30,664 nucleotides of DNA from the IMG/VR virus record IMGVR_UViG_2802429251_000007, positions 1-30,664 of that record; one strand, 5' to 3'. The DNA comes from a virus (lineage: Duplodnaviria; Heunggongvirae; Uroviricota; Caudoviricetes). Each line of letters starts with the position of its first letter. Position 1 is the first letter of the stretch. Position numbers and translations under genes: made by a program. Below the pieces are notes generated by a model. It saw only the letters and a program-made list of their open reading frames with translations. It made no database searches and was not told the DNA's origin. This document shows positions 7,330-14,662 of the stretch, piece by piece.

Positions 7330-7542
7330 TTAGCCTACCTTACGGTATGGATACACATTTTTAATGAATTGGTGAAAATACTGGCCTTTTGAACTGGCAT
7401 TCATAAGACCCTGATAGATCCTGGATGGAACACCAGAGTATTGATAGATACCTCCATTGTGAAAGGCTATTTCCAGTGTGAGAGTTGCTGAATCATACCC
7501 AACTGACTGGAGATTTGATGATGAAACATAATTACGAATCAA
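7330..7542 (-). CDS. KTSC domain-containing protein (70 aa)
   Basis: (M)IRNYVSSSNLQSVGYDSATLTLEIAFHNGGIYQYSGVPSRIYQGLMNASSKGQYFHQFIKNVY matches the KTSC consensus end to end. TTG start with SD GAGGA (7554-7550) 7 nt upstream. The gene is AT-rich and antisense to the late operon. Confidence 0.8.
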   Translation of the reverse strand: MIRNYVSSSNLQSVGYDSATLTLEIAFHNGGIYQYSGVPSRIYQGLMNASSKGQYFHQFIKNVYPYRKVG

Positions 7543-7754: not shown

Positions 7755-8504
7755 ATGGCAAAACCGGACTGGGAGGCCATCGAATCGGCATACCGGGCCG
7801 GAGTCCTTAGCCTCCGTGATATAGGCGAGAAATACGGCGTAACAGAAGGGGCTATCAGGAAGAGGGCTAAAAAGCTTGGTTGGGTACGCAGTGGCGGTAC
7901 GCAGGTTTGCAAAAATGGTACGCAAAAAAGAAAAGTGCGTACCAGCAGAAAGCCTGCCATTACTGACCTTACACAAAAAGGTACGCAACCAAAAACAGAA
8001 CCTACACCGGATACGAAACCGATACGCGGAATGCGTACCGATCCCCCGACTAACCCATTCCAACCCGGTAACCAGCAGGCATTAAAACACGGTGGTTATG
8101 CCCGTCGCCTTCTGCTCAAAGATGAGGTGATAGAGGATGCTAAAGCGTTGACGCTCGAGGACGAATTATTTCGCCTTCGTGCTAACAACCTTGTCGCTGC
8201 AGAGAATATTGGTCGGTGGTTGGTGTCGCTGGAAGATGCTAATGGGGACCAGGAAAGGAAGATGCTGATGGAAAATATCAGCGCCGCCGAGAAAGCAATG
8301 ATGCGCAATACAGTTCGTATTGAGTCCATCGTTGGCACGCTTGCGACGGTAGGAAAAATATTTGCTGATACAGCCTACCGCAAGGCCGCCACTGATAAGG
8401 TGTCTCTGGAGGCTGATCGTCTTCGCCGTGATGCAGGTATTGATGATGGCAATGGAGAGCGTGACCTCAATGACTTCTACTCTGACATCCAAACCGACGC
8501 TTAA
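7755..8504 (+). CDS. terminase small subunit
   Basis: ATG follows AAGAGGA. N-terminal HTH-like segment (LSLRDIGEKYGVTEGAIRKRAKKLGW), a basic low-complexity linker and a coiled C-terminal part. It sits immediately upstream of, and overlaps, the large terminase. Confidence 0.8.
   Translation: MAKPDWEAIESAYRAGVLSLRDIGEKYGVTEGAIRKRAKKLGWVRSGGTQVCKNGTQKRKVRTSRKPAITDLTQKGTQPKTEPTPDTKPIRGMRTDPPTNPFQPGNQQALKHGGYARRLLLKDEVIEDAKALTLEDELFRLRANNLVAAENIGRWLVSLEDANGDQERKMLMENISAAEKAMMRNTVRIESIVGTLATVGKIFADTAYRKAATDKVSLEADRLRRDAGIDDGNGERDLNDFYSDIQTDA
7883..8039. repeat. array of six exact 8-mers GGTACGCA (four direct, two inverted) inside terS; candidate pac/TerS-binding sites
   Basis: Direct copies at 7883, 7896, 7917 and 7980. 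Inverted copies (TGCGTACC) at 7936 and 8032. Degenerate GATACG(A/C) copies at 8010 and 8021. Confidence 0.5.
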
Positions 8505-9873
8505 TCCGGCTTTACGTAGTTTCTGGACTACGCGGGCACGTAACAAAGTGCTTTATGGTGGCCGGTCATCGTCAAAATCATGGGATGCCGCTGGCATTGC
8601 CATATTTCTGTCGAATAAATACACCCTGCGTTTTTGTTGTGCCCGTCAGATCCAGAATAAAATCGAAGAGTCGGTGTATACCCTGCTCAAAATTCAGATA
8701 GACAGGTTTGGCCTGCGGCACCGTTTCCGGATTCTGAACAACAAAATCATTAACCGGGTTACTGGCTCGGAATTTGTTTTTTATGGATTATGGCGCAACA
8801 TCGAAGAAATTAAGTCACTGGAGGGGATCGACGTGTTGTGGCTGGAAGAAGCCCACGCACTGACTGAATACCAGTGGAAAATTCTGGAGCCAACGATCCG
8901 TAAAGAGGGTTCGGAATGCTGGTTCATATTCAACCCCGGACTTGTTACTGATTTCGTCTGGCGTAACTTCGTTGTTGATCCGCCTGAAGGCACTCTCATC
9001 CGCAAAATTAACTATGACGAAAATCCGTTTCTGTCTGACACCATGCTTAAGGTTATCGACGCGGCGCGACGCCGTGATCCGGATGGTTTTAAACATGTGT
9101 ATGAGGGCGTTCCGGAGTCTGATGATGATGCGGCAATCATCAAACTGTCCTGGATAGAAGCCGCAGTGGATGCGCACAAAACGTTAAATTTCGAACCCAG
9201 TGGAAGAAAGCGTATTGGCTTTGACGTGGCTGACAGTGGTACAGATAAGTGCGCTAACGTTTACCGTCACGGATCCGTTGTTTTCTGGGCCGACGAATGG
9301 AAGGCCAAAGAAGATGAATTACTGAAGAGCTGCCAGCGTACTTATCAGGCGGCGCTGGAGCGTGAAGCAGATATTGTTTACGACTCTATCGGTGTTGGTG
9401 CTTCTGCCGGTGCTAAATTCTCTGAAATTAACGCTGACCGGAAGAGCGAGAATGCATACGCGCGACGTGTGAATTACCAGAGGTTTAACGCCGGCGCTGG
9501 TGTGCATGAACCAGATGACGAATACAACGGCATCCCCAACAAAGACTTTTTCGCAAATCTTAAGGCTCAGGCATGGTGGCTGGTGGCTGACCGTTTCAGA
9601 AATACGTTTAACGCCATTAACAACGGAGAACAGTATCCTGTGGATGAGCTGATCAGCATAGATTCTCGTTGTCCGTTGCTTGAAAAGCTGAAACTGGAAC
9701 TGACAACACCTCATCGTGATTTCGACCGTAACGGACGTGTGATGGTCGAAAGTAAAAAAGACCTCGCAAAACGCGAGATACCGTCACCAAACGTTGCTGA
9801 CGCATTCATTATGGCCTTCGCGCCAATTGATACATCGCTGGATATCTGGGAACAGCTGGGGAGACAGGCCTGA
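8470..9873 (+). CDS. terminase large subunit (PBSX/Terminase_3-like, headful type)
   Basis: Walker A-like VLYGGRSSSKSWDAAG, then ...WLEEAH... and a C-terminal nuclease-like region. The start is taken at ATG 8470 (GGAGAG upstream), with ATG 8452 as an alternative. The ORF-track start at 8362 lies deep inside terS. Confidence 0.9.
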   Translation: MTSTLTSKPTLNPALRSFWTTRARNKVLYGGRSSSKSWDAAGIAIFLSNKYTLRFCCARQIQNKIEESVYTLLKIQIDRFGLRHRFRILNNKIINRVTGSEFVFYGLWRNIEEIKSLEGIDVLWLEEAHALTEYQWKILEPTIRKEGSECWFIFNPGLVTDFVWRNFVVDPPEGTLIRKINYDENPFLSDTMLKVIDAARRRDPDGFKHVYEGVPESDDDAAIIKLSWIEAAVDAHKTLNFEPSGRKRIGFDVADSGTDKCANVYRHGSVVFWADEWKAKEDELLKSCQRTYQAALEREADIVYDSIGVGASAGAKFSEINADRKSENAYARRVNYQRFNAGAGVHEPDDEYNGIPNKDFFANLKAQAWWLVADRFRNTFNAINNGEQYPVDELISIDSRCPLLEKLKLELTTPHRDFDRNGRVMVESKKDLAKREIPSPNVADAFIMAFAPIDTSLDIWEQLGRQA

Positions 9874-11342
9874 TGGCACGAAACAAACAAGCCCTGCGGC
9901 GAACTGCGCAGGCCACAGCTGATGGTTATGAGAATTTTATTGCCCGCGTAGGGATGCAGACACCTAACCAGCACTCAGCATCCACCTACCGGGCTAATTT
10001 TACCAGTCGTAACCGCATGCTGGTGGAATGGTCCTATCGTTCATCCTGGATCATCGGCGAAGCAGTCGATGCTATCCCGGATGATATGACCCGCAAAGGC
10101 ATTCGCATCACTTCGGAAATTGATGCAAAAGATCGCGGCATTCTCGAATCACAACTTGATGAGTTGCAAATCTGGGATGCGCTGAATGACGTGCTGAAAT
10201 GGTCTCGTCTCTATGGCGGTGCGGTTGGCTTCATCATGATCGAGGGGCAGGCACCAATGACCCCGCTGCGGCTCGAAACCATTGGAGAAGGCAAGTTTAA
10301 GGGCATTCTCCCGCTCGACCGCTGGATGATTAACCCGGTGCTGACCCGCCGCATTAAAGAGATGGGGCCGGATCTCGGCAAACCTGAGTTTTACGATGTG
10401 GTGACCACTGCAACGGGCATCCCGGCCTGGCGCATCCATCACAGCCGCCTGATTCGCTTCGATGGCGTCACGCTGCCATTCCAGCAGAAGATGACCGAGA
10501 ACGAATGGGGAATGTCGGTTGTAGAGCGAATCTGGGATCGGCTTACTGCGTTCGACAGCGCCACTGTCGGCGCGGCTCAGCTGGTCTACAAAGCGCATCT
10601 GCGCACCTACAGCGTGGAGAAGCTGCGCGAGATTATCGCGCTTGGTGGCCCAGCTTTCGAAGCGTTGCTGAAGAACATCGACCTGATCCGCCAGTTCCAG
10701 AGCAATGAAGGCATGACGCTCATGGACTCGCGGGATAAGTTTGAAACGCATCAGTACAGCTTCAGTGGTCTGGATGACATCCTATCGCAGTTTGCAGAAC
10801 AGATTAGTGGCGCTGTTGGTATTCCACTGGTGCGGTTGTTCGGACAGTCCCCGAAAGGATTTTCTACCGGTGATGCAGATCTTGCCAACTATTACGACCG
10901 GGTGAGCTCATTGCAGGAGCGCCGCTTACGGATGCCGATGCGCCGGATACTGGACATTATGCACCGCTCGGAACTCGGTAAGCCGCTGCCGGACGATTTC
11001 ACGTTTGAGTTTAACCCGCTCTGGCAAATGTCTGATGTCGATCGCTCAACGGTGGCGTTAAACACTACCAACGCAATCAGTACGGCGCTGGGTGATGGTC
11101 TGATGACACTGAAAGCCGCTATGACCGATTTGCGCGAAAATTCTGACGTAACCGGCATCGGGGCATCCATTACCGACGAGGACATAGAGAATGCCGAAGA
11201 CGAAGCGCCGCCAGGCATCGGCGAACTTGGCGACAAACCGCCAGAGTCGCCAGGCGGAGATCCGATATCGAACGAGCCTACGGCAGATAGCGCGGGCGGT
11301 CGGGGATATCGTAAATGGGCGCTACGATGGTTCAAACGATAG
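9873..11342 (+). CDS. portal protein (DUF1073-type)
   Basis: The ATG overlaps the terL stop (TGATG). 489 aa with an acidic C-terminus. The gene follows the terminase, and the sequence resembles the DUF1073 portal family as I recall it. Confidence 0.85.
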   Translation: MARNKQALRRTAQATADGYENFIARVGMQTPNQHSASTYRANFTSRNRMLVEWSYRSSWIIGEAVDAIPDDMTRKGIRITSEIDAKDRGILESQLDELQIWDALNDVLKWSRLYGGAVGFIMIEGQAPMTPLRLETIGEGKFKGILPLDRWMINPVLTRRIKEMGPDLGKPEFYDVVTTATGIPAWRIHHSRLIRFDGVTLPFQQKMTENEWGMSVVERIWDRLTAFDSATVGAAQLVYKAHLRTYSVEKLREIIALGGPAFEALLKNIDLIRQFQSNEGMTLMDSRDKFETHQYSFSGLDDILSQFAEQISGAVGIPLVRLFGQSPKGFSTGDADLANYYDRVSSLQERRLRMPMRRILDIMHRSELGKPLPDDFTFEFNPLWQMSDVDRSTVALNTTNAISTALGDGLMTLKAAMTDLRENSDVTGIGASITDEDIENAEDEAPPGIGELGDKPPESPGGDPISNEPTADSAGGRGYRKWALRWFKR

Positions 11343-11964
11343 CGTAACCGAAATAATGGATGCGCTGGAGCGCTACAGCGAAATCATCACCCCCTGGGCG
11401 ACGAAGGTAGCTGAGAACTTTACCGCAGACATAGCGCGCCAGAATGAAAAGCAGTGGCGTCAACACAGCCGGAACATCAGCGCAGAGCTGCGCAACATGG
11501 TCGACCGCGCCCCGGTAGGCCAGGTGATGAAATCCATCGTCGCCGAGCAAATTAAGTACATCAAGTCACTGCCTCTTGAGGCCGCCGATCGGGTGTATGA
11601 CATTCAGAACAAGGCCATCGAGGCCGTTGTGTCTGGTGGCCGCGCTGAGCCATTCGCGAAAGAGATAGCTGCGTCCGGTGACGTGTCACGCTCACGAGCG
11701 AACCTTATCGCCCGTACTGAACTTGGACGTGCAACCGGCGCGCTGGATCAGGCGCGTGCGCTGTCAATCGGCTCGAATGGTTATATCTGGCGTACAGCCG
11801 AAGATGGCGACGTCCGGCATTCTCATCGGGAGATGGAAGGTAAGTTTGTCGAATGGGGCAAACCTCCAACGCTTGATGGCATGACCGGTCACGCTGGCGA
11901 GCTCCCGAATTGTCGCTGTTATAAAGAAATCGTTTTTCCCACCTCCCATTCTTATCCCGCCTGA
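11191..11964 (+). CDS. head morphogenesis protein (Mu F / SPP1 gp7 family)
   Basis: The C-terminal ...IARTELGRA...WRTAEDGDVRHSHREMEGKFV...ELPNCRCY is the MuF-domain signature. ATG 11191 gives a 152-nt out-of-frame overlap with the portal gene; the alternative start at ATG 11356 lacks an SD. Confidence 0.8.
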   Translation: MPKTKRRQASANLATNRQSRQAEIRYRTSLRQIARAVGDIVNGRYDGSNDSVTEIMDALERYSEIITPWATKVAENFTADIARQNEKQWRQHSRNISAELRNMVDRAPVGQVMKSIVAEQIKYIKSLPLEAADRVYDIQNKAIEAVVSGGRAEPFAKEIAASGDVSRSRANLIARTELGRATGALDQARALSIGSNGYIWRTAEDGDVRHSHREMEGKFVEWGKPPTLDGMTGHAGELPNCRCYKEIVFPTSHSYPA

Positions 11965-13720: not shown

Positions 13721-14662
13721 ATGATTACTTTTGATCAGGCAACCGTTGACAGCTCTGGTGCCTTTCTCATCGGGGAGCTGGAGCGACTCGACCAGACGCT
13801 GAACCTGCCACTGGTGGGGTACACCTGGACCCGCGATATTCAGTTGCGTGAAGATGTCTCCATTGCAGATGACAGTTCCAGCTGGACGAATACCAGCTTC
13901 GCCGCTGCGGGTACTGGTGCAAATCCGAATGGCAAAAACTGGGTAGGCAAAGACTCAACCGCTATTGCTGGCGTGAACGTGGATATCGGCAAATCCGGTA
14001 ACCCGCTGAACCTGTGGGGGATGGAACTTGGCTGGACGGTCATAGAATTGCAGGCTGCTCAGCAGGTCGGCCGCCCGATTGATACGCAGAAGTATGACGG
14101 TATGCAACTGAAATGGCAGATGGATAACGATGAACAGGTATATGTTGGCGATTCCGCATTAAACCTGAAAGGCCTTGTTACCCTGAACGGTGTTCCTGTC
14201 AACAACGCTGCCAAAACGTGGGCAACCTCAACACCGGACGAAATCCGCGCAAGCATTAACCAGGTGCTGTCTGATGCGTGGGCCGCTTCTGGTTACTCTG
14301 TGGTTCCGCGTGATTTGCTGATCCCACCTGAGCAGTTTGCTCTGTTGTCCAGCATCATCGTTTCATCTGCGGGTAACCAGTCCCTGTTGACGTACCTTCA
14401 GACCAACACCATCAGCTATCACCAGAACGGTGTTCCGCTGAATATCCGCGCGGTTAAATGGCTGAAAGGCCGTGGTGTGGGGAATAAGGATCGCATGGTT
14501 GCGTACACCAACGATAAAAAATACGTCCGCTACCCGCTGGTTCCGCTTCAGAGCGTGCCGGTGCAGTATCGCGGTCTGTATCAGATCGTCACTTACTACG
14601 GCAAGCTGGGTGCAGTCGAGCCAGTGTACAAAGAAACCATTTCGTACGTTGATGGCATTTAA
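13721..14662 (+). CDS. major capsid protein (DUF2184-type)
   Basis: 313 aa, SD AAGGA. The position and the sequence (MITFDQATVDSSGAFLIGELERLD...) fit the DUF2184 capsid family from memory. A strong hairpin follows the gene. Confidence 0.8.
   Translation: MITFDQATVDSSGAFLIGELERLDQTLNLPLVGYTWTRDIQLREDVSIADDSSSWTNTSFAAAGTGANPNGKNWVGKDSTAIAGVNVDIGKSGNPLNLWGMELGWTVIELQAAQQVGRPIDTQKYDGMQLKWQMDNDEQVYVGDSALNLKGLVTLNGVPVNNAAKTWATSTPDEIRASINQVLSDAWAASGYSVVPRDLLIPPEQFALLSSIIVSSAGNQSLLTYLQTNTISYHQNGVPLNIRAVKWLKGRGVGNKDRMVAYTNDKKYVRYPLVPLQSVPVQYRGLYQIVTYYGKLGAVEPVYKETISYVDGI

Follow-up and report, generated by a model that had tools for sequence, protein, structure and literature searches.

Does a short DNA motif, repeated several times within a small-terminase gene, mark the place where packaging of the phage genome begins? 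The question is raised by a 30,664-nucleotide (nt) stretch of DNA from a virus of the Caudoviricetes (IMG/VR record IMGVR_UViG_2802429251_000007, positions 1 to 30,664; the window, hereafter), in which terS, the gene for the small terminase subunit, occupies positions 7755-8504 of the plus strand and codes for a protein of 249 residues (TerS). An original prediction, made from the sequence alone, had pointed to six exact copies of the 8-mer GGTACGCA inside terS and had proposed them as a packaging-initiation (pac) site recognized by TerS. Sites of this kind have been experimentally defined for only few phages. Reviews portray the recognition of pac as poorly understood, and one from 2022 describes DNA binding by pac-type small terminases as unclear and controversial, the binding seen in vitro being mostly weak and sequence-independent (PMC9611059). 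Here, comparative sequence evidence and one experimentally characterized homologue lead us to consider it quite probable that the array is a set of sites bound by the helix-turn-helix (HTH) domain of the gene's own product, TerS, and that it most likely serves as pac in a prophage that packages by the headful. We found no earlier account of the array, or of the correspondence between recognition helix and motif described below, in the searchable literature, the coverage of which is incomplete, so that the absence of such an account is unproven; the precedents that did come up were those of P1, lambda/21/N15, P22 and SPP1, and a full-text search for the 8-mer returned primers and unrelated matches only.

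Distribution and coding of the repeats in terS

The window contains seven exact matches to GGTACGCA, whereas 0.74 +/- 0.87 are expected from 100 dinucleotide-preserving shuffles, none of which reached seven. Six of the seven are packed into 157 bp of terS, for which the chance rate predicts about 0.004 copies. An exact search returned them at the very positions that had been predicted (7883, 7896, 7917 and 7980 on the plus strand, 7936 and 8032 on the minus strand), and also returned the single additional copy, at 3880-3887 on the plus strand. This seventh copy, the only one outside terS, lies inside an IS1 element, the left inverted repeat of which matches exactly at 3675-3697.

As delimited by exact search and alignments, the whole array, a candidate pac recognition site with copies on both strands, extends from 7883 to 8039 (nt 129-285 of terS) and comprises two clusters. 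The left cluster (7883-7943) has three exact direct copies, one decayed and one inverted copy; the right cluster (7968-8039) has one decayed, one direct and one inverted copy. Copy 1 (7883-7890, plus strand) is read as TGG GTA CGC, or (W)-V-R, and almost all of 80 relatives have a core at the same offset (nt 129 of terS). Copies 2 (7896-7903), 3 (7917-7924) and 5 (7980-7987), all on the plus strand, are read as GGT ACG CAR, or G-T-Q. The two copies on the minus strand are copy 4 (7936-7943; TGCGTACC on the plus strand), which is read as GTG CGT ACC, V-R-T, and copy 6 (8032-8039), read as ATG CGT ACC, M-R-T; by codon reading, the frames assigned in the original prediction were all correct. Copies 3 and 4 form an inverted repeat with 8-bp arms 11 nt apart (7917-7943). 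The core of copy 6 is retained in class-A relatives despite changes in the preceding codon (V, M or S), and is absent from phage Chronis, the C-terminal part of which derives from a RothC-like terS.

Two additional plus-strand 8-mers, GGTTTGCA at 7904-7911, with two substitutions, and CTTACACA at 7968-7975, are read as decayed copies because of what relatives carry at the aligned positions: GGTACGCA at the first, and CGTACGCA or CGCACGCA at the second. Between the clusters, a spacer segment, AAAGCCTGCCA (7949-7959), is invariant in 12 of 12 aligned sequences, synonymous positions included, and also shows high column identity across 82 sequences. By analogy with phage P1, from which the idea of a nearby cut is taken, this spacer is a candidate auxiliary or cleavage element. 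The GATACG sequences that had been listed as degenerate copies are present at 8010 and 8021. They encode a family-wide peptide, D-T-K-P-I-R-G, which also occurs in TerS proteins with a different repeat; their conservation can therefore not be credited to the motif.

The identity of terS is well supported: residues 1-248 of its product match phrog_370, 'terminase small subunit' (E 3.4e-95), and homologues carry the terS annotation in the Klebsiella phages GZ7 and ST405-OXA48phi1.2. Weak Pfam HTH matches cover residues 17-41, and no Pfam family scored above threshold. The N-terminal three-helix HTH (helices at residues 6-15, 20-27 and 31-41) is encoded by 7770-7877 and its proposed recognition helix, EGAIRKRAKKL, by 7845-7877, both on the plus strand; it is the first residues of this third helix that co-vary with the repeat sequence. 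In an AlphaFold2 model of TerS (mb5e52b3bc768, built from a 26-sequence alignment), the predicted local distance difference test (pLDDT) score is 78-88 over residues 1-40 and falls below 50 at residues 48-91, a disordered linker of about 45 residues, while residues 108-226 form long confident helices in the monomer. Since its codons are 43-95, the array coincides with this low-confidence segment, in agreement with its predicted location in the linker-coding part of the gene. A search of the PDB with the TerS sequence found no sequence relative of solved structure, and a Foldseek search of the model against the PDB returned nothing significant because the long helices dominate the model.

The repeats are conserved as DNA

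Klebsiella phages, among them GZ7, Mulock, Chronis and ST16-OXA48phi5.2, and also E. coli prophages have genes about 88% identical to terS. All of these genes keep the array, and most exceed the window in copies, with up to ten GTACGC cores. Copy number shifts by 12-bp units, TGGTACGCAAAR, giving rise to proteins of 249, 253-254, 258, 262 or 266 residues. When IMG/VR loci were gathered through the N-terminal 50 residues of TerS, 80 of 80 had 5-10 GTACGC cores at nt 129-302 of terS, and about 1800 nt of flank was almost empty of them.

Several observations bear on whether it is the DNA or the peptide that is conserved. With the TerS protein held fixed, synonymous recoding with the codon usage of neighbouring phage genes gave a mean of 0.5 copies of GGTACGCA, and none of 20000 trials reached six; shuffling the gene's own synonymous codons gave the same result. 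Across 82 distinct terS relatives, column identity is 0.953 within the motif as against 0.872 in the non-motif linker, and at third codon positions the motif reaches 0.967, compared with 0.816 for the remaining linker and 79% for the C-terminal part. Moreover, the motif occurs within terS in three codings: G-T-Q, V-R and, reversed, R-T. The repeats are thus selected as DNA rather than as peptide. The claim that conservation operates at the DNA level is borne out by the codings, by the recoding trials and by the third-position conservation alike.

The annotation of the gene deserves comment. All of the E. coli records from RefSeq that were inspected, and most of the phage records, list terS as a 'hypothetical protein'. 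For E. coli KFu024 and FDAARGOS_433 (loci L007 and L008; 555-1331), RefSeq gives only the C-terminal 162 terS codons (843-1331), and because these belong to an open frame of 258 codons, both the HTH and the array are left unannotated. Many database proteins of this family (P0125, P0136, P0145, P0156, P0160, P0165, P0188, P0205 and P0211) are read out of frame through the array (e.g., ..VRRYAKMVRKVVRK..), as would be expected if the A-runs that separate the repeats were often frameshifted or missequenced. The array imposes repeated GGT-ACG-CAR (Gly-Thr-Gln) codons on terS. Its presence accounts for the odd codon pattern of what is, in the window, an unannotated 'hypothetical protein' gene.

The repeat sequence changes together with the recognition helix of TerS

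One test put forward with the original prediction was to look in related prophages for conservation of the array or for its co-variation with the HTH of TerS, and the outcome is clearly positive. For the 80-locus comparison above, as well as for those of C-terminal families and of a first set of helices and motifs, loci were found by protein alone. All TerS proteins so collected that have the helix (S/T)EGAIRKRAK, which belong to three unrelated C-terminal families, are encoded by genes with 3-10 GTACGC cores just downstream of the helix. The EGAIRKRAK HTH precedes unrelated C-terminal domains in the TerS proteins of Klebsiella ST11-VIM1phi8.1 and Edwardsiella GF-2 (200 residues) and of Erwinia EhrS_59 (172 residues). 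In both of these groups the repeat is GGTACGCA or GTACGCA, present as three direct copies and one inverted, and encodes V-R-K, V-R-S or V-R-T in place of G-T-Q. Conversely, the TerS proteins of the Klebsiella phages Chronis and RothC are identical from TKPIRG to the end and have different HTH-plus-repeat units: Chronis combines the EGAIRKRAK HTH with GTACGC, whereas RothC combines an HTH of the form ..GLNYSSAKRYIK with TGCGAA / TGCGAATTCGCA. Between Chronis (L005) and RothC (L012), which have the C-terminal two-thirds of TerS in common, the proposed specificity module has been exchanged in nature; the junction lies somewhere between about nt 240 and 290 of terS.

The GF-2-like and EhrS_59-like families extend this correspondence to other sequences. 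Their direct copies lie at offsets 162, 177 and 189 with an inverted copy at 217, or at 162, 174 and 187 with an inverted copy at 203; three direct and one inverted copy is the usual layout, the fourth copy being direct in two members of the HT class. When the first residues of helix 3 differ, so do the four copies, all in the same way. A helix that starts with EG is found with GTACGC, DT with GTTCGC, HT with GGTTTC, HG with GTATCC, HQ with GTTGCC, HV with GTTACC or GTTAAC, and HA with GTAACC. Some of the switches between classes are silent, V-R being encoded by GTA CGC or GTT CGC and V-S by GTT TCC or GTA TCC, and the inverted copy encodes unlike residues (E-R-V, E-R-I, E-R-Q, V-E-T or V-V-T). 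The concerted change must therefore take place at the DNA level. A matrix of helix by motif counts over 273 distinct sequences is almost diagonal.

More distant TerS proteins of the same architecture have repeats of their own, CGATCATGA in phage 933W (four copies with a 12-nt period) and CTGCGCAA in Aeromonas phiARM81mr (seven copies). Across Escherichia, Klebsiella, Edwardsiella, Erwinia and Aeromonas hosts, no feature was found to vary along with the repeat other than the HTH, which the same gene encodes 60-100 bp upstream. If the code that we propose on the basis of these comparisons is right, the central bases of GGT-NNN-C(A) would be set by the two residues that open the recognition helix together with the residue five positions on; at the third of these positions, Arg would correspond to CG, Ser to GC, and Asn to TC, AC or AA.

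Comparison with P1 PacA and other packaging systems

Among the known TerS recognition sites that lie inside terS, the pac site of P1 appears to be the most similar to the array. In the P1 record, TGATCA/G hexamers occur in pacA at nt 194-233 (four copies) and 324-380 (three to four copies), and the features annotated between the two clusters are an IHF site (nt 256-268) and the sites of pac cleavage (nt 276-285). In both systems, then, a short motif forms two clusters in the 5' part of the gene for the recognition subunit, right after the DNA that codes for the HTH. The HTH domains are homologous as well: a profile of the class-B TerS HTH aligns with the N-terminal HTH of P1 PacA with an hhalign probability of 95% (E 4e-8) and with the window HTH with a probability of 96%. 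BLASTP of PacA against the TerS of 933W gave E 5e-4, the link from PacA to the window running only through the intermediate profile and only over the HTH. Both systems also share headful packaging, inferred here for the window. The comparison with the multi-repeat pac site of P1, already drawn in the original prediction, is therefore closer than had been stated, in that the HTH is homologous and the hexamers occupy the same place in pacA. Yet there are differences. The P1 motif is TGATCA/G and not GGTACGCA; no counterpart of the P1 IHF site was identified between the clusters of the array, though no search aimed at one was made; PacA has 397 residues, with no similarity to TerS detected past the HTH; and the large subunits, PacB and a Terminase_3 protein, are of different families, as judged by name. 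P1 pac is regulated by Dam methylation, and its motif has GATC, whereas GGTACGCA does not, so that the array lacks the sequence on which control of the P1 type depends.

The TerS of the Stx phage 933W belongs to the same superfamily as that of the window, with about 30% identity and the same architecture (tblastn covers 96% of the query). Its repeat also lies in linker-coding DNA, at about 642-690 of locus L013, where it codes for I-D-H-E repeats. The 933W protein differs in its HTH class, ..NYNTARTRIK, and its repeat contains GATC; we did not find a description of a pac site for this phage. By analogy with the Dam-controlled hexamers of P1, the GATC repeats of 933W hint that packaging in Stx phages could be Dam-sensitive.

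Other systems resemble the array in part. With P22 and Sf6 the locus would share a pac site embedded in terS and headful packaging, and its large terminase subunit, TerL, is close to PDB 4IDH/4IEE, 'Gene 2 protein' (E 8e-79); we take the 4IDH chain to be gp2 of Sf6, the large terminase of a headful phage. However, the P22 TerS has no classical N-terminal HTH, and neither P22 nor Sf6 has a described repeat array; pac of P22 consists of one asymmetric sequence of 22 bp (PMC9611059). A second precedent comes from lambda, 21 and N15, whose packaging specificities depend on changes in the recognition helix that are matched by changes in the R sequences (PMC4669245). Like the array, lambda cosB (R3, R2 and R1, bound by the winged HTH of gpNu1) provides several sites for the TerS HTH beside terS, one of them in opposite orientation, but these are cos phages with precise nicking at cosN, sites upstream of the gene, and other HTH and TerL families. 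In the pacL-pacC-pacR region of SPP1/SF6, TerS contacts multiple points on either side of the cut (PMC9611059), and its HTH domains are displayed on a ring (PMC4737164). Contacts at multiple points are a likeness to the proposed array; on the other hand, recognition in SPP1/SF6 is reported to be largely sequence-independent, and TerS there belongs to the Terminase_2 family. The strict identity of the motif and its co-variation with the helix imply that reading is base-specific here, unlike in SPP1/SF6. ES18 was considered as a member of the pattern and rejected, its TerS being of another family and without a repeat array; its pac site is stated to be unknown (PMC11260489). Papers on Mecenats66 and on a Pseudomonas syringae phage were also set aside, as they have no relevance to the TerS family of the window, and so was a note on phage phi296, which is ambiguous as to permutation and cohesive ends.

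Alternative explanations

A number of points weigh against assigning the array to TerS and to packaging. The reverse inference, from motif to TerS, is weak. Of 120 viral-contig loci with triple GGTACGCA arrays, 92 had a helix of the EGAIRKRAK type upstream by a strict pattern, a figure that rises to about 97 if variant helices are admitted; the others were collagen-like G-T-Q repeats, A-Q-V-R-T repeats and GC-rich arrays. Among species-representative bacterial genomes, mostly high-GC, only five of 120 GGTACGCA-array loci lay downstream of the HTH. GGTTTCC arrays lay within terS in five of 120 loci, all five with the HT helix. Part of the class-A rows of the helix-motif matrix is circular, because those sequences were gathered by motif search, and since the HTH adjoins the array, inheritance as a block could explain part of the co-variation. 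The record ends of relatives (RCIP0034/0098, Mulock and PDP110P2), considered as possible mapped termini, are conventional or arbitrary and reveal no termini; they are uninformative, as the source paper mentions neither PhageTerm nor termini. The array of the window is itself a reduced version, with two decayed copies, the IS1 upstream may have disabled the prophage, and TerS binding could serve a purpose other than the initiation of packaging. Against block inheritance, though short of a formal phylogenetic test, stand two observations: all copies change in concert, and identical pairs recur in different TerS families.

In the same searches, loci L349 (array at 5194, minus strand) and L434 (array at 5166, plus strand) were found to have arrays of GGTACGCA like that of the window, an inverted copy included, with no TerS HTH upstream. 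These could be remnants, or satellites that copy the packaging signal of a helper. In L434, the array is followed by an open reading frame (ORF) that, by eye, shares an AVKHG-type motif with the C-terminal region of TerS, and then by another small ORF. Tandem GGTACGCA arrays on high-GC bacterial or viral contigs with no terminase context were seen in L340, in L381 and in 115 of the 120 loci L581-L700; the array of L340 lies upstream of an ORF that is helicase-like by eye.

TerS might bind the repeats through its HTH for the autoregulation of terS and terL, or in order to load after some other signal has defined pac. Sites inside the protein's own gene are suited to feedback control, and the comparative evidence speaks to recognition by the HTH and not to the steps that follow. 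Nevertheless, we regard this as unlikely, given that P1 PacA, the sole characterized homologue with this layout, uses its repeats for pac cleavage, that the established role of TerS is the recognition of DNA for packaging, and that no second candidate site was seen. Alternatively, and this is the most concrete of the rival readings, the inverted copies could form an RNA or single-stranded DNA hairpin acting in the translation or transcription of terS-terL, the concerted changes being compensatory. The stretch GGTACGCA-11 nt-TGCGTACC at 7917-7943 would indeed make a perfect 8-bp stem, RNA from 7870-8050 folds at -57.5 kcal/mol (z = -4.3 relative to shuffles), and several families show joint changes of one direct and one inverted copy that preserve the pairing. 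A hairpin, however, needs two arms, and the arrays have 4-10 copies, mostly direct; the GGTTTC members L179 and L180 lack an inverted copy, all four of theirs being direct; the loop varies by family, measuring 11 nt in the window as against about 9 nt and about 22 nt in two others; and the tie to the residues of the HTH would be left unexplained. In addition, no Rfam family matched, no terminator-like site coincided with the 8-mer copies of the array, and the signals returned by a promoter and terminator scan were not above chance. A hairpin is thus a very unlikely explanation.

That the motif is read by another DNA-binding factor, such as a host protein, a phage regulator or a methyltransferase, would fit the GGTACGCA arrays without a nearby TerS HTH in L349, L434 and many bacterial loci. 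Across hosts, however, the HTH upstream in the same gene is the sole feature found to track the sequence of the repeat, and we hold another reader to be highly improbable. Nor do we give much credence to the repeats being a by-product of replication slippage in a lysine-rich, low-complexity linker (G-T-Q, V-R-K), with no function at the DNA level. Gains and losses of the 12-bp unit are frequent, the region encodes a disordered, repetitive peptide, and collagen-like G-T-Q repeats elsewhere also yield runs of GGTACGCA. But slippage cannot produce copies that are inverted or in another frame. Furthermore, synonymous positions within the motif are the most conserved of the gene, the same 6-8-mer occurs in unrelated peptide contexts after the same HTH, and the choice of synonymous codons switches in every copy at once between classes, all of which makes this explanation extremely unlikely.

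Proposed mechanism

Small terminases assemble into rings. If the array is the pac site, a ring of TerS would present flexibly tethered HTH domains, each reading one repeat; as neighbouring direct copies are 12-13 bp apart, the DNA would wrap or bend across several subunits. The inverted copies (7936 and 8032) would close each cluster. The C-terminal domain of TerS would then recruit TerL, and the first cut would be made near the array: by analogy with P1 between the clusters, at about 7945-7967, and possibly, by analogy with Sf6, in an imprecise manner. Headful packing of the DNA would proceed from this cut. Because the peptide is disordered, sites in the DNA that codes for the linker cost little. 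Their placement there would also keep the reader and its site linked as one portable specificity module, which fits the observed exchange of an HTH-plus-array unit between TerS families. On balance, we favour the idea that the HTH and the linker array together make up a portable packaging-specificity cassette, with a readable code, common to a TerS superfamily (1340 clusters at 50% identity, E <= 0.001) that includes P1 PacA and the terminases of Stx phages.

Packaging genes and other features of the window

The gene terS lies directly upstream of terL and overlaps it. The latter, at 8470-9873 on the plus strand (start set by matching the RefSeq coding sequence in L009), codes for a large terminase of the Terminase_3 / PBSX family (Pfam PF04466, E 4.5e-38). 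The assignment of TerL to the headful, Terminase_3-like type is upheld by this match, together with the similarity to 4IDH. A module of head genes follows, with genes for the portal (9873-11342), a Mu-F-like protein (MuF, 11191-11964) and the major capsid protein (13721-14662). Just upstream of terS, and opposed to the rightward late operon, is a gene for a KTSC-domain protein (7330-7542, minus strand).

The IS1 element occupies about 3675-4442, with InsB at 3924-4427, between a gene for a Q-like antiterminator (2579-3385) and the tRNA and lysis genes. It may block late transcription and so render the prophage non-inducible. Two phage-borne tRNA genes, for tRNA-Thr(UGU) and tRNA-Gly(UCC), are found at 5355-5508, upstream of the holin gene; they might conceivably be connected with the Gly-Thr-Gln codons that the array imposes on terS. 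A minus-strand gene at 28414-28986, after the tail-fibre assembly gene, is likely a moron and has a weak, below-threshold match to hexapeptide-repeat transferases.

Implications

Arrays in terS are an unusually explicit case of recognition by a small terminase, in that the sites are exact, numerous and located beside their reader. They also offer natural swaps of specificity, with at least eight pairs of helix and motif, some of which differ by synonymous DNA changes alone. If our reading is right, these pairs would provide a natural mutational series for base-specific reading by a pac-type TerS. Both the pac sites and the starting points of lateral transduction would be predictable from sequence alone in E. 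coli and Klebsiella prophages. Calls of pac could then be made in thousands of enterobacterial prophages, the neighbouring host genes mobilised by lateral transduction could be predicted, and satellites that copy the signal of their helper could be flagged.

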